Part shown: piece after piece, positions 517 through 29,641 of the stretch | How the letters are laid out: each line of letters starts with the position of its first letter | Numbering within the stretch: position 1 is the stretch's first letter | DNA from: a virus | Lineage: Duplodnaviria; Heunggongvirae; Uroviricota; Caudoviricetes | DNA length: 37,816 nucleotides | IMG/VR virus record: IMGVR_UViG_2563366922_000008 | Span: 1-37,816 of that record | Direction: 5' to 3' (one strand) | Program-made: the position numbers and the translations under genes | The notes under the pieces: model-generated | Told to the model about the DNA's origin: nothing | Databases searched by the model: none | Seen by the model: only the letters and a program-made list of their open reading frames with translations

Positions 517-1953
517 TTAAGTTAAACCAATTAATCCATGCCCGGTTGAAGCATGTAAGTCCTGAATTAATGCTGCAACTACCTTTGCTAAATCTTCGTG
601 AGTTATTGTTCCAGAGTTAAATGCTGCTCGGGATACGGTGCCGGTTGGCGATCCCCATCCCGTCCTCCTCTCTGAAATAACTTGATTGCCATTAAGTCGT
701 ATTCTTAAGTTGTTGAAGTTAGCCCAGTTCTCAGCCCTGTTGAAACTCAAATGTGTTGTATTTGCCGGGCCCGTTCCTACCGTAATTCGTTGATTGTCGC
801 CCATCAAAATTGCGCAGTTGTTTGAAAATCTAGCTTCAGAAAATGAAATTCCACTCCTAAAATAATTTGTTCTAAATCTAATGCCGTTTGCAGCTCCAGA
901 TGATAGAGATCCCTCAAGTCTGATGTATTCGCCATTACCTACCTCGGTTAGTTCCTCTGTTGGAGTGGAAATAGAATTACCTCTAAACAACATTCCTGTC
1001 CAGATATAACCATTTGGAGCTTCACTCCCTCTTCCGATGGTAATCATCTGTGTTACTGGATTGCTTTTATCCTGAGTTACACATACCAACCCTCTTACAG
1101 ATCCTTGCAGTGCATTCTCCATCCATCCTTTATCGGGACCTCGATTATTCAGATTAAATTCATGTGCAATAGTGCTAATCGCTCCATTCTGCACTGCATC
1201 TCCTAATACTGCACCATATGACCACCCCCCCCATGTTTCGGCTTGCGGATTTCTTGATTCTCCACGCATGTGGTGACCAATTGAATGCCCATTCCCTCCC
1301 TCATGCTTAGCAACACTTGTAGTTGTGCATGTATATGCACTTCCTGACACCTTGCGCAAAGAGTTATAAATTACCCCCTGATCCCATCGTTTGATGCCGT
1401 CATCCCTAGTTGCAGAACTAATTTTTTCCAGCCAAATAATGGGATCTGGAATTGGTGTTTCTGGTATGGAGAATCTCTGTCGTGTAGCATTTTTATATAT
1501 GATAGTTTCATTGTTATAAATATTGTCACCAGCTGCATCTGAACCAGTCCATCCTGAGCCAGCATAAAAATTCTTAAGTCCATCACCAGACTGTCCAGTC
1601 AAAACTACTCTTAACTGATCCGGGTCATACTTCAGCACATTTGGGAATTTGAACTGCTGTGCACCATACGCATCATAAACAGCCATAGAATGGCCTTGCT
1701 CAGTTACGAATTTGGCAATCTGTCCGTTATATACAGGGTAACCAGCGGCGTTAATGATGATTGGTTGCGAAACGGGAACATGAGAGCCGTCTTCGTTCTC
1801 TACATAAACCTGAATCTGGTTTTCAGGATTTACTGGGTCAGTGTCAATTTTACCGATATAAATCTTTCCATTAGCTACGGCTTTAAAAGAACGAGCCATA
1901 GTGAAGAGTTGCGAAGGCATGCTGACTACAACATTGGCTGTAATGTCTGTCAT
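517..1953 (-). CDS. Tailspike / tail fiber protein with P22 gp9-type N-terminal head-binding domain and a divergent receptor-binding region
   Basis: 478-aa ORF; N-terminus [11 protein letters not shown]...[33 protein letters not shown]...NVLKYDPDQ matches the P22 tailspike head-binding domain as I recall it; rest unlike the P22 endorhamnosidase; GGAG 8 nt upstream of ATG. Confidence 0.8.
1225..1232 (-). repeat. Homopolymeric G8 tract (C8 on plus strand) inside tailspike coding sequence
   Basis: Plus strand ...accaCCCCCCCCatg...; encodes W-G-G-W (tgg ggg ggg tgg) in the tailspike frame. Confidence 0.9.
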
Positions 1954-2099: not shown

Positions 2100-2351
2100 A
2101 TGGGAAGAGATGACCCGCAATTTAATCTGCGGCTACCTTACGAATTAAAGGAAAAACTAAAACAGCGAGCCAAATCCAATGGCCGCTCTCTTAATTCAGA
2201 ATTAGTTCAGATAGTTACTGATGCTGTATCAAAGCCATCCAAAATTTCAGGCTATCGAGACGATGCGGAACGCATCGCTGATGAGCAGTCCGAACTTGTT
2301 AAGAAGATGGTGTTTGATACGCTGAAGGATTTGTACAAAAAACCCACCTGA
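2100..2351 (+). CDS. mnt: Mnt repressor (ribbon-helix-helix, P22 immI-type)
   Basis: 83-aa ORF MGRDDPQFNLRLPYELKEKLKQRAKSNGRSLNSELVQIVTDAVSKPS...ADEQSELVKKMVFDTLKDLYKK, matching P22 Mnt in length and sequence as recalled. Confidence 0.85.
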   Translation: MGRDDPQFNLRLPYELKEKLKQRAKSNGRSLNSELVQIVTDAVSKPSKISGYRDDAERIADEQSELVKKMVFDTLKDLYKKPT

Positions 2352-18986: not shown

Positions 18987-19505
18987 TCACTTTGGCAGTC
19001 CGGGGATCGATATTTGCGCCTGCTGCTCAAGCCTTTTGATTCTTGCTATGAGTTGCGGTTTTTTGATCCTGCCCCAGCGGTTCAGCAAGCGTCCTGACAT
19101 ACTGGCAACATCCTTTTCCTTCATGAACTCCAGCATTAACTCGTTGTGCTCTCTTTGGTATGAGTGAGCCATCTCCATCAGCCTGTCACGCATCCAATTA
19201 AATGCTTTGATAAACGCCTCTTTGATGGCGGCAGCTTTTTTGCCGGTAAACGACATGATGATGTACATCGCACCGTCTTTGGAAATTTCATATTCAACAT
19301 ACTGATTACCCTTGTGTTCATAGGTAACCCGCGAAAAGTTGCTGGTTAGAAATTCATCCGAACATTCTAGCTTTTCGATTTTCTGAATGATGTGGTGATG
19401 CTGCTTGTCGAAGTAAGCTGCTACCTTGCGGGAGGTTGTGATCACGCGATCACCAGAAACAACCACCATGTCCCGGAAATCGAGATTAGCCAATTGATGA
19501 TTCAT
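18987..19505 (-). CDS. Rha-family phage regulatory protein
   Basis: ATG at 19505 gives MNHQLANLDFRDMVVVSGDRVITTSRKVAAYFDKQHHHIIQKIEKLE...YEHKGNQYVEYEISKDGAMYIIMSFTGKKAAAIKEAFIKAFNWM, typical of the Rha (Phage_pRha) family; table start 19541 is GTG. Confidence 0.7.
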   Translation of the reverse strand: MNHQLANLDFRDMVVVSGDRVITTSRKVAAYFDKQHHHIIQKIEKLECSDEFLTSNFSRVTYEHKGNQYVEYEISKDGAMYIIMSFTGKKAAAIKEAFIKAFNWMRDRLMEMAHSYQREHNELMLEFMKEKDVASMSGRLLNRWGRIKKPQLIARIKRLEQQAQISIPGLPK

Positions 19506-19846
19506 AGCGTCTTTACCTTTTAGAAAGTGAGCCTGTCTCACAGAAAAGCCGCCCGAGAGAGGTCGCCACCTATAACGGCATTTCTCAGGCTCGCTTACTG
19601 AAAGGCTCTCGTTAATATGCGCGTGAGATGCGCTGTGAAATTCAGATATAAAAAGCCCCGCGAATGCGAGGCTAAATCCTGGTGTTTGTGATGACTGGCT
19701 CTTATCTCAACGCAGCCCCTTACCGCGCGCCAGATGCTCAATATCAAGCATCAGCAATGAGATGTTTAATCTGGATTCACTCCAGAAGTGATCACCACCC
19801 TGTCTACAGAGCCAAATGTGAAGGATGATGAGTAAAATTATCGCTA

Positions 19847-20989: not shown

Positions 20990-21282
20990 GCTCTACCCCT
21001 TCATTGAGGGGATTTGCTCTATTTAATTAGGAATAAGGTCGATTACTGATAGAACAAATCAAGGCTACTGTGTTTAGTAATCAGATTTGTTCGTGACCGA
21101 TATGCACGGGCAAAACGGCAGGAGGTTGTTAGCGCAACCTCTTGCCACCCGCTTTCACGAAGCCAGTCATTGAGCTGGTTTTCTTTTATGCAAAGCACAC
21201 CGCACCGTAGCCACAGCGGATAAGGTGATTATTTTGGTCTGTCTGGTATTTGGTTTGATGCGCTTTCAGAAAGGTCGTGCTT

Positions 21283-21321
21283 AAAACGCAAAAAGCCCCG
21301 AGCTATTAACTCAGGGCTTTA
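21283..21321 (-). terminator. tR'-like rho-independent terminator about 60 nt downstream of pR'
   Basis: Minus strand AAAGCCCUGAG-uuaauagc-UCGGGGCUUUUUGCGUUUU. Confidence 0.6.
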
Positions 21322-21353
21322 TTTAACGAGTGCATTTATCCATCGTTGAGTCA

Positions 21354-21382
21354 AATTTACCCAACTTTATTCAAAAAGTCAA
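21354..21382 (-). promoter_or_regulatory. Late promoter pR' (-35 TTGACT, 17-bp spacer, -10 TAAATT) with adjacent qut region
   Basis: Minus strand TTGACTTTTTGAATAAAGTTGGGTAAATTTGACTCAACGATGG matches lambda pR'/qut as recalled; directly downstream of Q. Confidence 0.6.
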
Positions 21383-21424
21383 TATTATGCCGTTAATATG
21401 TTGCCATCCGTGGCAATCATGCTG

Positions 21425-22048
21425 CTAACGTGTGACCGCATTCAAAATGTTGTCTGCGATTGACTCTTCTTTGTGGCATTGCACCACCAGAGCGTCATAC
21501 AGCGGCTTAACAGTGCGTGACCAGGTGGGTTGGGTAAGATTTGGGATTAGCATCGTCACAGCGCGATATGCGGCGCTTGCTGGCATCCTTGAATAGCCGA
21601 CACCTTTGCATCTTCCGCATTCTTTCTCAACAACTCTCCCCCACTGCTCTGTTTTTGCTATATCAACCGCACGGCCTGTACCGTGACAATCTCTGCATCT
21701 TGCGCCCGGCGTCGCGGCACTACGGCAATAATCCGCATAAGCGAATGTTGCGAGCACTTGCAGTACCTTTGCCTTAGTATTTCCTTCGAGCTTTGCCACA
21801 CCCCGGTATTTCCCCGATACCTTGTGTGCAAATTGCATCAGATAGTTGATAGCCTTTTGTTTGTCGTTCTGGCTGAGTTCGTGCTTACCGCAGAATGCAG
21901 CCATACCGAATCCGGCTTGTGATTGCGCCATCCCCATAGCAGCCATCACATCAGTACCGGAAAGAGAGTCAGAAGCCGTAGCCCGTGGTGAGTCGCTCAT
22001 CATCGGGCTTTTTGGCGAATGAAATTTAGCTACGCTTTCGAGTCTCAT
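21425..22048 (-). CDS. Q: Late antiterminator Q (lambda-type)
   Basis: 207-aa ORF MRLESVAKFHSPKSPMMSDSPRATASDSLSGTDVMAAMGMAQSQAGFGMAAFCGKHELSQNDKQKAINYL... matches lambda Q as recalled. Confidence 0.9.
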   Translation of the reverse strand: MRLESVAKFHSPKSPMMSDSPRATASDSLSGTDVMAAMGMAQSQAGFGMAAFCGKHELSQNDKQKAINYLMQFAHKVSGKYRGVAKLEGNTKAKVLQVLATFAYADYCRSAATPGARCRDCHGTGRAVDIAKTEQWGRVVEKECGRCKGVGYSRMPASAAYRAVTMLIPNLTQPTWSRTVKPLYDALVVQCHKEESIADNILNAVTR

Positions 22049-22233
22049 CGTCTTCCTCTCTTGCCCTGTTTGACCATCAGGACGCCGTTAACTATTACGT
22101 GACGTTCGCCTTTGCTGTCTCGGTTGTACTTGAGCACCGTTCCTCTTGCGCAGGAAAGCATCCTCGCCACTTCGGTCTGATTGCCTCGTGTCTGTATAAG
22201 AAGCTCTGGTATCGTTTGAATTGTGGCGTTCAT
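22045..22233 (-). CDS. ninH: NinH-like protein
   Basis: 62-aa ORF MNATIQTIPELLIQTRGNQTEVARMLSCARGTVLKYNRDSKGERHVIVNGVLMV resembles lambda NinH; overlaps Q start. Confidence 0.65.
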   Translation of the reverse strand: MNATIQTIPELLIQTRGNQTEVARMLSCARGTVLKYNRDSKGERHVIVNGVLMVKQGKRGRR

Positions 22234-22592
22234 ACGTTCTCCAGTTCGGTGATTTTTATTCCAAGCCGTCCGCCTGGTACTTTCACGCCACGAATTACGC
22301 GAATGTCATCGAATTGCTCGTCGTCTTCCGCAAATCCGGCGTGGATAAGGGAGTCGAGTAAACCTTTCAGGATGTTGTCGAGGTCGCGGCGGCGGGAGTC
22401 TGGAACGTCTGCGATGACTTTGATGCGGAGTCGTGATTTGGTGAAAATGTCTAACTTAAGTTGGCGGATGATTTGCTGAACGTCTTTTCGGTATTTCTGG
22501 CCTTTATCGCTGATGTAGTATTGGCTTCCCCGTCTTCGCCAGTAGGTGTTCACCGACGGCGGGTATGGAAGCACAAACTGATATTCGTTCAT
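22230..22592 (-). CDS. rusA: Holliday junction resolvase RusA
   Basis: 120-aa ORF ...LPYPPSVNTYWRRRG....ISDKGQKYRKDV..........RIKVIADVPDSRRRDLDNILKGLLDSLIHAGF..DDEQ..DIRV....V.GGRL.I.ITE, RusA motifs incl. RRRDLDN. Confidence 0.85.
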   Translation of the reverse strand: MNEYQFVLPYPPSVNTYWRRRGSQYYISDKGQKYRKDVQQIIRQLKLDIFTKSRLRIKVIADVPDSRRRDLDNILKGLLDSLIHAGFAEDDEQFDDIRVIRGVKVPGGRLGIKITELENV

Positions 22593-22879
22593 GACTTAAT
22601 CTTCCCCTCCTTCAGCAGTATCGCCTGCGTCCTGATCACGCCTTCGAGGTGGTAAAGTCTGGCGTCTTTGTTGTCGAGGTTATGGGTGCGTCGGTCGATT
22701 TCATCGTGACACGCGCTACAAGCCCATGCACCGATCAGGTCGTCAGGCTTCATTCCCGTTCCGCAAATTCCAGCCATCCGGTAATGTGCCAGAACTGTAG
22801 TTTCAGGGTTGCCATTGCATACGCCGTAAATACGTACCTGGCATTCTCTGCCGCGTGCTTCTTTGCGTAGGTTAGCCAT
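22589..22879 (-). CDS. ybcO: YbcO-like (DUF1364) putative nuclease
   Basis: 96-aa ORF MANLRKEARGRECQVRIYGVCNGNPETTVLAHYRMAGICGTGMKPDDLIGAWACSACHDEIDRRTH resembles E. coli DLP12 YbcO as recalled. Confidence 0.7.
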   Translation of the reverse strand: MANLRKEARGRECQVRIYGVCNGNPETTVLAHYRMAGICGTGMKPDDLIGAWACSACHDEIDRRTHNLDNKDARLYHLEGVIRTQAILLKEGKIKS

Positions 22880-23601
22880 TAAGCAGCCTCCCCTGTTACT
22901 TTCAGCATTCCGTTATCGAGCAGCTTTCTGGTCAGCCACTGTTGACCACGCCCGGTGATTTTTGTGGTGAACGATATCTGTATCCCGTGATTTGTGTTGA
23001 TCGCTGTTTCTTTCACTGTGAAATAGCCGCGATCCATATATTCCTGCATTGGCACATTGCGCCGGGAACCTGAAGCAATAAGGATTTTGTGATCGCGCAT
23101 CCACGCAAACAGTTTGTTTGGACCAATTCCAACAACCTTTGCAAAGTTTCCAATCAAAATTCCGCTGGCCTCGCCAACGCGATCGGCAAACTCAACTTTA
23201 GGTGCGGCAATTGCGAGCTGGTTTTCCAGTTGCATTTTCTTCTCAGCAAGATCAGCAGCAAGGCGCAACGCTTCCGGTAGCGTTTTGGGGATATTAACCG
23301 TAGTTTCTTCAAGCTCTCGCCAACGATCAACAAGACGAGCGGTGAATTCCGGCGACAACTGGGCTACAACGACAATACTGTCTCGCTTACCTTGTTCGCC
23401 CTCAAAAACGTAAGCCTCTACGCCACGAAGTAATCCTAAGTTATTGATTTTTTCGAAAACCACCATTGGGGGATTTCGGATCACACCTCGAGCCGCCAGT
23501 CGTTCAATAGATTGTTTCACCTTGTCATGACGACTTCCCACCAACTCAGCGATTTCAATGCTTGTCATTTTGATGGCGTTGCCATTTATTAACTCATTCA
23601 T
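22879..23601 (-). CDS. Phage antirepressor-like protein (Rha-like N-terminus plus KilA-C domain)
   Basis: 240-aa ORF; N-terminus MTSIEIAELVGSRHDKVKQSIERL (Rha/AntA-like), C-terminus ...NFAKVVGIGPNKLFAWMRDHKILI...YFTVKE...ISFTTKITGRGQQWLTRKL typical KilA-C. Confidence 0.75.
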   Translation of the reverse strand: MNELINGNAIKMTSIEIAELVGSRHDKVKQSIERLAARGVIRNPPMVVFEKINNLGLLRGVEAYVFEGEQGKRDSIVVVAQLSPEFTARLVDRWRELEETTVNIPKTLPEALRLAADLAEKKMQLENQLAIAAPKVEFADRVGEASGILIGNFAKVVGIGPNKLFAWMRDHKILIASGSRRNVPMQEYMDRGYFTVKETAINTNHGIQISFTTKITGRGQQWLTRKLLDNGMLKVTGEAA

Positions 23602-23770
23602 CGTCTTCTTCCTCGTACATTGAGCTATTCGGATCGCTCATCAGTTCTGCGCAGCAGTGCTCACACACATGAACTTCCAGCACATGCAGCTTCTGACCGC
23701 AGTTAGCGCACGTTAAAGCTCGCTCGACGCTTTCTTTCTGGTATTGAAGGGATTGGGATGGGCTAAGCAT
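23594..23770 (-). CDS. ninF: NinF-like protein (58 aa)
   Basis: Hand-translated: [58 protein letters not shown]; resembles lambda NinF; absent from ORF table (<60 aa); 3' end overlaps antirepressor start by 8 nt. Confidence 0.65.
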
Positions 23771-24110
23771 TATTGGCGTCCTGCATCAGGAGAAAGACAA
23801 TCATGGCGGCGCGGAGAGGTCTGGTATCAAATATTGGGCTTACGCCTTTTGCATCCACACACCATTCAGTTAACTGGTCTAAGATAGAAATCCTGTATTT
23901 CTCAATAATCGGCCATGAAGCGCTCGGATCATTGCAGTAGTCAGGCAAAGGGTTTAATGGCTCAAGACTTACATCGGCATTTCCGTAATACCATTTGTTG
24001 GTGTTATTCCCTGATGTTTCAGGCTTACATGCCCAAAGGCCTTTAAAAATTATGTCTCCTACCATTCGGTTAATTTCAAAATCACTTAACTGTGAATAAT
24101 CCATTGTCAT
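23763..24110 (-). CDS. Hypothetical nin-region protein (NinX-like by position)
   Basis: ATG at 24110 overlapping NinE stop (ATGA); [34 protein letters not shown]...; family uncertain. Confidence 0.5.
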
Positions 24111-24283
24111 TTCCTCGCACGATGTCTTAGCCACCGGATATCCCACAGGTGAGCCGTGTAGTTGAAGGTTTTTACGTCAGATTCTTTTGGGATTGGCTTG
24201 CGTTTATTTCTGGAGCGTTTCGTTGGAAGGTATTTGCAGTTTTCACAGATTATGTCGGTGATACTTCGTCGCTGTCGTCTCAT
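24107..24283 (-). CDS. ninE: NinE-like protein
   Basis: ATG at 24283 overlapping NinB stop; [58 protein letters not shown] resembles lambda NinE (or NinD) as recalled. Confidence 0.65.
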
Positions 24284-24690
24284 TCGTACCTCCTGTCGGT
24301 AAATCTGACACCCTGACCAATAGCCCAAGCTGTTGTGTACTCGATAAGACTTGCCATACGCTTCACACTCATCTGCGCGCTGCTTTCGCGAATGTTGACG
24401 TATTCGCCTTCAAGCCCAGGCAAAACATCAGCTTCCTGTTTTGTTGCCACTGCATGACCGCTGATCAACAAAACCTTCCATTGTTCCGGTTTTAACCATT
24501 TTCCGCACCATTGAACCTGACGTGCGATATCCGCCAGCATCGCGTGAAATTTTGCGTTCTGGTCAAGGTTGCGCTTGTAGTCAGTAATGCGGATGGTGAC
24601 TGGCTTGTCTTTATCGAGTGGTGTTGCGAGGATGGCATTTATTGCAGCTTGCTGTTGTTGCTTAGTTCGGAGGAAGATTGTTTGCTTCAC
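24280..24690 (-). CDS. ninB: NinB (Orf-family recombination mediator)
   Basis: 136-aa [24 protein letters not shown]...[32 protein letters not shown] resembles lambda NinB; apparent GTG start with AAGGAG 7 nt upstream. Confidence 0.8.
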
Positions 24691-24701
24691 TGAATACTCC
24701 T

Positions 24702-24887
24702 TTATTTTTTATGCCTGTAACCCCATTCTTCCAGCAACCTTGCGGCGTACCACCCAAGAAACAAAGGAAAGAACATTACAATGAGATATTCCCCGCCACG
24801 GTCAATGTTCGAAATTGACCAGATTACGATGTAACCAGTGCAGGACAGGAATATTACAAACCCCAAAAAGCTACTTCGTCGACTCAT
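24702..24887 (-). CDS. Small membrane protein (61 aa, two predicted TM helices)
   Basis: ATG at 24887 with AAGGAG 5 nt upstream; MSRRSSFLGFVIFLSCTGYIVIWSISNIDRGGEYLIVMFFPLFLGWYAARLLEEWGYRHKK. Confidence 0.45.
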   Translation of the reverse strand: MSRRSSFLGFVIFLSCTGYIVIWSISNIDRGGEYLIVMFFPLFLGWYAARLLEEWGYRHKK

Positions 24888-24889
24888 GC

Positions 24890-25204
24890 TCACTCCTTCA
24901 CTTTTATTCCAGCGGCGCGGATGTTTTCCTCATAAGCATCCATTGCATCACCGAAGCCATTGGAATAATCAACAGTAAACCCTTTGGCTAATGCTTCTCT
25001 GCTGTCGATAAACTTTGGCGCGATTATTTCAATAGCTGCTCGCGATGCCTGCCATAAAGCCCACCACTCATTTAAGGAGTGACGAATATCCATGCTTGAA
25101 AATGCAAAGTACCTATCACCATTTCGTGCCTCGGTTATCATCTCGAATGGTAATCTCAATTTTTTGGCAACGTATTCCTCAAACTGCTTTCTTGATTCGT
25201 CCAT
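24890..25204 (-). CDS. Hypothetical 104-aa nin-region protein
   Basis: ORF MDESRKQFEEYVAKKLRLPFEMITEARNGDRYFAFSSMDIRHSLNEWWALWQASRAAIEII...; ATG start. Confidence 0.5.
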   Translation of the reverse strand: MDESRKQFEEYVAKKLRLPFEMITEARNGDRYFAFSSMDIRHSLNEWWALWQASRAAIEIIAPKFIDSREALAKGFTVDYSNGFGDAMDAYEENIRAAGIKVKE

Positions 25205-25221
25205 CGATACTTACCCTCAAT

Positions 25222-25428
25222 TCAACTAACAAAACGCCACGCCATTTTTGCTACGACAACAGGCATAACACCGATAATCACCCAGACAAATGCAGCGCCA
25301 AACAACGTATACCATGGGTCTTTACCGTCATTCACAAGACGAATGTAGCTATGCAGAACAATAAAAAACGTCAGAAGAATCCATCCAACGCCAACGCATT
25401 TGAATGCGACGAGCATAAACTCAGCCAC
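25222..25428 (-). CDS. Small membrane protein (68 aa, two predicted TM helices)
   Basis: ORF (GTG start, GGAG upstream) MAEFMLVAFKCVGVGWILLTFFIVLHSYIRLVNDGKDPWYTLFGAAFVWVIIGVMPVVVAKMAWRFVS. Confidence 0.45.
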   Translation of the reverse strand: MAEFMLVAFKCVGVGWILLTFFIVLHSYIRLVNDGKDPWYTLFGAAFVWVIIGVMPVVVAKMAWRFVS

Positions 25429-25443
25429 GATTTACTCTCCCCC

Positions 25444-25477
25444 AAATAAAAAGGCCTGCGATTACCAGCAGGCCTGT
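25444..25477 (-). terminator. Rho-independent terminator after replication genes (tR2-like position)
   Basis: Perfect 8-bp inverted repeat aggcctgc...gcaggcct with U-tract on the minus-strand transcript, 25 bp downstream of the helicase gene stop. Confidence 0.5.
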
Positions 25478-25500
25478 TATTAGCTCAGTGATGTAGATGG

Positions 25501-26877
25501 TCATACGTCAGCCCCTTGTGCATATCGCCTGCCACGCGCAGCAGGTGCATTTGATGCTGTGCAAATCTGTCTGGCTTCATCCTGGTCACATGCAACAAAG
25601 TGTCCGTTGCAGAACCGCTGGTAAACCGTACCAAGTGAGCCAAAACGGTTTTTCGTCACGATGATTTCAGCAAATGGCGCGGCGCTACTGCTCTCGTCAT
25701 ATACCGCTTCCCGATAGAGCATGATGATTGAGTCTGCGTCCTGCTCAATGCTTCCTGAATCACGCAAATCTGCGTTTGTCGGGCGTTTGTTTGGTCGCTT
25801 CTCAACATCGCGCGAAAGCTGACTCAGGGAGATAACAGGCGTTTTCAGGTCTTTCGCCATCGCCTTCAGGCTTCCGGAGATGTGAGCAATTGCGAGGTCG
25901 TTGCGGTCTGCTTTCGGCTTCTCAATCAGGCCAAGATAATCTGCCATGATGAGTGACAGGTTTGGATTTTCCTGTTTGTGCCGTTCTGCGATTGAGCGAA
26001 TTTCTTCGACCGATAACCGCGAGGCATCGACTACCCATACATCCAAATCTGCAAGCTGACTCATGCCGTTAGCAACACGTGCCCAGCCCTCGTCATCCAT
26101 CGATGCAGGATTTCGCAGTACGCTAACCGACATCCTCCCGGCGTTGGCAATGCTTCGCTCTGCAATCTGCAATGCGCTCATTTCCATTGAGAAAATCAAT
26201 ACCCCGCGCCGGACGTCAGAACCAGGAATAACGCGGCTTGCAACGCCTTCGGCAATCTTCAGCGCCAGTTCGGTTTTCCCCATACCAGGACGAGCAGCGA
26301 TTATCACAAGGTCTTCCGCGTTCATCCCTCCGGTGATGGCATCAAGTTCTTCGATTCCGGTCTTCAGGGTATCTGACTCTTCTCCGTTCCTCAGACGCCT
26401 GTCAAGCGTGTCAGTGTAGTCAGTGATGATTTCCCCTAACCGTACAGGTTTAACCTCGTCACGGGGCTTTCTGATGGCTGAGAGACGTTTTACAAGTTCA
26501 TCCATCGCCTGACTCGATGCGTCGATGGTTCCGCTTTGGATTGGTTCACGCATTTCATCCATGATTTCCAGCACCAGACGGCGGTGATAGTTATCCGCGA
26601 CCATTCCGGCATATCCCTTCAGGTTTGCGGCACTCGGGCAGTTTTTGCTGGTCATCAGGATTGACGTGAAATGCTCCTCTCCGCACTCCTCGGCAACCAT
26701 CAGCGCGTCGATTAGGTTTCTGTTTCGCGCCTGCTTGCGGATAACCTCGAAGGCTTTCCGGTAGAGCGGAATTGAAAACGCTTCCGGCTCCAGCGTTGCC
26801 AGAACGTCGCTGGCGGTTGGAGTTAATCCACCAATCAGCAGGCCACCGATAACGCTCGCTTCGATATCCTGTCTCAT
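25501..26877 (-). CDS. Replicative DNA helicase, DnaB-like (P22 gene 12-type)
   Basis: 458-aa ORF with Walker [10 protein letters not shown], DnaB-type motifs ([35 protein letters not shown]); start overlaps O-like gene stop. Confidence 0.9.

Positions 26878-28288: not shown

Positions 28289-29641
<1,353 letters not shown>

Follow-up and report, generated by a model that had tools for sequence, protein, structure and literature searches.

The window, which is the whole stretch of viral DNA that was analysed (37,816 nt), shows a P22-like phage or prophage in reverse orientation, with HZ41 and IME10 as its best matches. Its nin region holds the string ninB-ninE-ninX-ninF-roi-ybcO-rusA-ninH-Q, in which a gene of 240 codons, roi, overlaps both of its neighbours.

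22879..23601, minus strand: roi coding sequence (240 aa plus stop), with an ATG start, from the list of open reading frames
23594..23770, minus strand: ninF (Pfam NinF, 47.3 bits)
22589..22879, minus strand: ybcO/hkbD, a DUF1364 putative nuclease gene (Pfam YbcO, 150 bits)
21425..22048: Q, assigned by the gene order shared with HK022 and Kapi1

Two further nin neighbours are recognised by Pfam as RusA (62 bits) and NinX (60 bits). In the raw sequence, the ATG of roi (23599-23601) lies within the last codons of ninF, and the 3' end of ninF shares the roi start in an 8-nt overlap (23594-23601, ATGAATGA). At the other end of the gene, the TAA stop codon of roi and the ATG of ybcO share 1 nt (TAATG). 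A GAGG Shine-Dalgarno motif can be read in the sequence 9 nt upstream of the roi start. Through these overlapping start and stop codons roi is translationally coupled within the nin operon, and it has no regulatory space of its own, its start being located inside ninF and its stop inside ybcO. An earlier note on this DNA had described a gene of 240 codons between ybcO and ninF with an 8-nt start overlap with ninF, and the ORF list, the sequence and Pfam bear out all three points. The overlap was also considered as a special feature of this locus, but this idea was dropped, since HK022 and Kapi1 have it as a standard feature too. In both phages the genes are annotated as ninB-ninE-(ninX)-ninF-roi-ybcO/hkbD-rusA-ninH-Q, and the overlaps again measure 8 nt and 1 nt. 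In the related phage Kapi1, genes for tRNA-Thr and tRNA-Asn separate Q from the holin gene, whereas ARAGORN finds no tRNA gene in the whole window.

The window protein aligns with HK022 Roi over 240 of 241 residues at 88% identity (E 2e-158), and this likeness identifies the gene as roi, which was named in 1996 and is thus already known and an ordinary member of its family. The two proteins are near-identical, with scattered substitutions only, outside residues 22-65, whereas this block, which contains a predicted helix (residues 25-38) and a hairpin, is a different allele. The carriers also differ: HK022 represents a siphovirus type, whereas the carrier in the window is a podovirus that resembles P22 and has 434-type immunity. 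The original work of 1996 reportedly found that lytic growth of HK022 requires IHF owing to roi, located between P and Q. Roi is said to carry a helix-turn-helix and to recognise a DNA site within roi itself, not far from an IHF site, and this binding is said to be stabilised by IHF. Single amino-acid changes in Roi reportedly allow growth on hosts without IHF, and its C-terminal half is said to resemble Ant1 and KilA of P1.

Megablast of positions 22500-24200 against phage records matches 426 records, under which the gene or protein is annotated as roi/Roi ('DNA-binding protein Roi', 'anti-repressor') in HK022, HK97, HK620, CUS-3, HK629, mEpX1/2, Kapi1 and others. Orthologues are also annotated in VT2-Sakai. 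Of 5426 complete E. coli genomes, 1039 (about a fifth) contain similar DNA, and PGAP names the product 'phage antirepressor KilAC domain-containing protein'. In IMG/VR there are 554 confirmed relatives of Roi, and the identical protein (100%) occurs at three loci. Roi matches phrog_63, 'anti-repressor Ant' (1.4e-94), while an NCBIfam search returns no family for it, and an exhaustive profile search reaches 6807 cluster representatives at E ≤ 1e-3. Because of the PHROG 63 match and these 6807 representatives, the gene is far beyond chance, and its family is large and long known.

Domain organisation and predicted structure of Roi

Roi consists of an N-terminal domain and a C-terminal KilAC domain joined by a long helix. 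The second Rha-type gene claimed for the window by the earlier note does exist and is the true rha.

23302..23574, minus strand: N-terminal Rha-type domain of Roi, residues 10-100 (Pfam Phage_pRha and the AlphaFold2 model)
23167..23280, minus strand: long connecting helix of Roi, residues 108-145 (AlphaFold2 element H108-145)
22918..23226, minus strand: KilAC/ANT domain of Roi, residues 126-228 (Pfam PF03374, 113.7 bits, cut-off 25.3; the match spans profile positions 1-106 of 108)
18987..19541, minus strand: rha (Phage_pRha 84 bits, TIGR02681 76 bits, plus ORF11CD3)

The KilAC half of the proposed Rha-N/KilA-C architecture is firmly established by its Pfam score, whereas the Rha-N half is weak for this sequence alone: Phage_pRha (PF09669) covers residues 12-99 with 27.2 bits, below its cut-off of 29.9, and TIGR02681 of NCBIfam does not match. 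However, 46 of 48 diverse full-length relatives of Roi match Phage_pRha (best 8.8e-18), and ANT is found in every one of the 48, with additional winged-helix matches in a few. Because 46 of these 48 relatives match PF09669, the N-terminal domain of Roi is assigned to the Rha type. By transitivity through the relatives it is judged to be homologous to the Rha domain, although Roi is not an Rha equivalog. When Roi and the Rha of the window are compared directly by BLASTP, their N-terminal domains do not align significantly, and the putative homology between the two runs through the Pfam profile and the relatives only.

The Rha proteins of phi80 and P22 (PF09669/TIGR02681) have a related type of N-terminal domain and the same historical phenotype on IHF-defective hosts as Roi. 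In contrast to Roi, which has a KilAC C-terminus and is encoded in the nin region, Rha has an ORF11CD3 C-terminus and is encoded in the late operon. The rha family is defined by the block that the Rha product imposes on phage growth in IHF-defective hosts (PMC4936722). The C-terminal KilAC domain is common to Roi and to Ant1 and KilA of P1, the founders of KilAC/ANT. As a side observation, the phage carries both rha and roi, each belonging to a family historically defined by a growth block on IHF-deficient hosts.

An AlphaFold2 model of Roi, for which the 48 diverse full-length relatives (39-60% identity) served as input, has a mean pLDDT of 91.5, with values above 90 in the N-terminal domain. 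The elements of this domain are E11-13, H14-21, H25-38, E46-52, E58-67 (hairpin 46-67), H68-80 and H84-100, and it is predicted to form a helix-turn-helix-like pair followed by a beta-hairpin. The long helix (residues 108-145) may have a role in dimerisation. The C-terminal domain is modelled as compact, with H150-157 and H161-170 resembling a helix-turn-helix, a hairpin at 194-215 and H217-229. When the PDB is searched with the Roi sequence, no solved relative is found, and Foldseek against the PDB returns nothing at E ≤ 0.001 with either the full model or its C-terminal half. The top matches below significance are winged-helix regulators, which is at most suggestive. Within the codons of the long helix there is also a terminator-like hairpin, CGTTGGCGAGGCCAGCG then GAATTTTGAT, at 23163-23179 (minus strand), which is probably due to chance because 9 such sites turned up where 5.8 were expected.

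A candidate IHF site and an allelic segment within roi

A putative IHF site is located inside the coding sequence of roi, within the only segment in which the window gene diverges from that of HK022.

23437..23449, minus strand: perfect match (AATCAATAACTTA) to the IHF core consensus WATCAANNNNTTR, gene nt 153-165 (consensus scan)
23407..23538, minus strand: allelic (mosaic) segment, residues 22-65, covering helix 25-38 and the hairpin (HK022 comparison and allele survey)

The site is a candidate, namely a consensus match preceded by an A/T-rich run. Perfect matches to WATCAANNNNTTR occur only twice in the 37.8-kb window, against 2.36 expected by chance, and one of them is inside roi. The roi gene of HK022 has the sole match in a 4.4-kb stretch, at the same position in the gene (nt 153-165). 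A comparison of the two DNA sequences by eye shows that conservation drops to about half of the columns at gene nt ~60-200 and is almost complete elsewhere, and in the pairwise alignment the IHF motif forms a conserved island within this one diverged block. Among 85 roi genes there are at least five alleles of the block encoding residues 22-65, in which mean conservation is 0.83, compared with 0.92-0.98 elsewhere in the protein (43 distinct Roi proteins). The motif is kept in all 81 sequences scanned for it (the window, HK022 and 79 IMG/VR genes), across four alleles, and is absent from a fifth allele, that of Stx phages, found at two loci. The DNA flanking the motif is near-identical in three of the four motif-bearing alleles, and therefore the support for selection on the motif amounts to about two independent lineages.

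The block of residues 22-65 coincides with the second predicted helix of the helix-turn-helix-like pair and with the beta-hairpin, and its alleles may encode different specificities for DNA or for a partner. Because the window allele differs from HK022 exactly at these residues, its DNA specificity or its partner may differ from those of HK022. A far-reaching extension, which is rather unlikely, is that each roi allele represents a self-contained specificity cassette in which the reading head and its operator are inherited together, and that with rha these cassettes provide distinct IHF-gated checkpoints before Q and late transcription. The codons of residues 22-65 specify the predicted DNA-reading helix and hairpin, and the same DNA carries the candidate IHF site. 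As the codons for the reading head would themselves spell out the operator, the two would be passed on as a unit. By the precedent of HK022, the binding site of Roi would be near this block, and the cassette requires that it lie within the block. A repeat search inside roi yields short and weak repeats only. A GCTTAC...GTAAGC pair was considered as the Roi site and rejected, the arm nearest to the IHF site not being conserved in HK022.

Expression of roi and its role in the lytic cycle

The genes and signals that bear on the expression of roi are the following.

28608..29240: cI repressor gene, 434-type (133 bits to the N-domain of the 434 repressor)
25452..25475, minus strand: tR2-like intrinsic terminator between the helicase gene and the nin region (8-bp stem with 6 GC pairs, then TTTTTATTT)
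21382-21354, minus strand: pR'-like promoter just downstream of Q (promoter scan)
21320-21292, minus strand: tR'-like terminator after the pR'-like promoter (terminator scan)
2100..2351, plus strand: mnt (Arc and Repressor_Mnt domains)

The delayed-early operon to which roi belongs ends at the pR'-like promoter and the tR'-like terminator. In a promoter scan of positions 21000-26000, no promoter-like site is found in front of roi. Only two weak sites are found on the minus strand in this range, against a shuffled expectation of 5.9: one (24278-24249) is located where ninB and ninE overlap, about 650 nt upstream of roi, and the other is the pR'-like site below Q. Between the tR2-like terminator and ninB there are three small minus-strand ORFs (24702-25428; 63, 104 and 68 aa), two of which belong to PHROGs of unknown function (phrog_343 and phrog_1165) and one of which has no family.

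As judged from this layout, the product of roi would be a delayed-early protein made from the pR transcript once cI repression has been lifted and N has allowed read-through of the tR2-like terminator. Because roi lies behind pR and the tR2-like terminator, it would be expressed only after derepression and could not start the induction of its own prophage. Expression of roi should therefore follow, not precede, the loss of cI repression. A LexA box (CTGTN8ACAG) is found nowhere in the window. The palindrome AGACCACTGTGGTCT, which resembles an Mnt operator, is found with up to three mismatches beside mnt alone, and nothing of the kind is present near roi; because it has no relative elsewhere, nothing links Mnt to roi.

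By orthology with HK022, the window Roi would bind DNA in a sequence-specific manner at a place within roi that adjoins the IHF site, and IHF would stabilise this binding. When IHF is absent, the wild-type protein would block lytic development. Passages in papers that cite Clerget and Boccard 1996 (J Bacteriol 178:4077) describe HK022 Roi as a DNA-binding protein implicated in lytic growth and ascribe to it an inhibition of lytic growth or of lytic-cycle activation (PMC3430580, PMC4587872). We infer that roi is very probably a standard optional nin-region module of lambdoid phages of the HK022/HK97/HK620 type, here carried by a P22-like phage with 434-type immunity, and that its product is an IHF-dependent modulator of lytic growth rather than an induction trigger. 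The earlier note had correctly recognised the 434-type immunity region, through the cI match, and the orphan state of mnt, which has neither arc nor ant beside it. However, its proposal of a secondary induction or anti-immunity role for the KilAC gene is not supported: roi lacks both a promoter-like site of its own and a LexA box and lies behind the tR2-like terminator, and the record of HK022 Roi is one of inhibition of lytic growth in IHF-deficient hosts, not of repressor inactivation. The suggested effect of Mnt on roi expression is likewise unsupported, the only operator-like palindrome being that at 2022-2036, beside mnt.

Three other readings of Roi have to be weighed against a role as an IHF-dependent modulator. 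It could be a true antirepressor, whose KilAC half, as in P1 Ant1, binds and inactivates a phage repressor, be it the 434-type cI of this phage or one made by another prophage in the cell, and thereby reinforces or spreads induction. The KilAC domain, named after KilA and Ant1 of P1, is strong in Roi, both PHROG and RefSeq label the family 'anti-repressor', and in Stx phages a distinct Ant is found beside Roi. However, such labels derive from homology, and on KilAC proteins they are inherited names, not functions. We know of no repressor-binding experiment for Roi. Functional antirepressors of the P22 Ant, P1 Ant1 and Gifsy/186-Tum type are marked by a promoter of their own that escapes the main immunity repressor, through a Mnt/Arc operator or a LexA box, and the scans reveal nothing of this kind for roi. 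In a Pfam search Roi matches only ANT and Phage_pRha and none of the P22 antirepressor families; unlike P22 Ant, it has neither an Ant-type domain nor a promoter controlled by Mnt and Arc. The position of roi behind pR and the tR2-like terminator, with neither a promoter-like site nor an operator of its own, also argues against this reading, as do the statements on inhibition of lytic growth in the passages of the papers that cite the HK022 work, and we consider it decidedly unlikely. The gene should be named roi, for an IHF-linked DNA-binding protein of the KilAC family, not 'antirepressor', and it gives no grounds for assuming that the phage has a second induction circuit.

It is very improbable that Roi acts like AriS of the Listeria phage phi10403S, in which case SOS induction in the host would be dampened by the KilAC domain, probably at the step of RecA, and phage genes would be regulated by the N-terminal domain, so that the response of co-resident prophages is tuned. 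Roi does have the AriS-like architecture, a pRha-like N-terminal domain with a C-terminal KilAC domain: AriS-like proteins pair KilAC with AntA/B, Bro-N or pRha, and the overexpressed ANT/KilAC domain of AriS alone blocked both SOS gene induction and lysis (PMC9043618). However, AriS itself has an AntA/AntB N-terminal domain and comes from a different host phylum. The effect was shown in Firmicutes only and on overexpression only, and deletion of the KilAC domain left SOS transcription unchanged at native levels (PMC9043618). No connection of AriS with IHF is described, and SOS damping would explain neither the link of Roi with IHF nor the intragenic IHF site; if it did occur, it would be the opposite of what an induction factor does. 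Least probable, and hardly credible, is that roi is dispensable cargo with no part in regulating its own phage, for instance a superinfection or inter-phage competition factor acting on incoming DNA. The gene is widely kept intact at one fixed position, translationally coupled to its neighbours, and no PADLOC defence family matches Roi. The module is nevertheless optional: in one E. coli prophage roi is followed by ninG, P22 itself has ninG after ninF, and IS629 disrupts roi in some viable Stx2a phages. For the preferred role in IHF-dependent lytic growth, the mechanism, including the target and the parts played by IHF and the KilAC domain, has been essentially unstudied since 1996, although the gene occurs in about one-fifth of complete E. 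coli genomes.

The mnt-tailspike region

The orphan mnt gene directly faces the tailspike gene.

517..1953, minus strand: tailspike gene (P22 Head_binding domain), next to mnt on the other strand

The perfect 15-bp palindrome at 2022-2036 lies 64 nt upstream of the mnt start, and Mnt may control a Pant-like promoter that reads into the tailspike gene. The tailspike protein is only 478 aa long, with a P22-type head-binding domain at residues 1-113, and the PHROG matches listed for it cover the first ~150 residues only; its receptor-binding part looks unusual. Downstream of the tailspike gene, two small minus-strand ORFs (319-504 and 111-356) have no PHROG family. On the plus strand, a small lysine- and glycine-rich ORF (2452-2630; 59 aa from an internal ATG) has a YjzC-like match of 19.4 bits, the cut-off being 25. 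This ORF may be a moron between mnt and the genes for the ejection proteins, and it is followed at ~2636-2660 by a terminator-like hairpin with a T-run.
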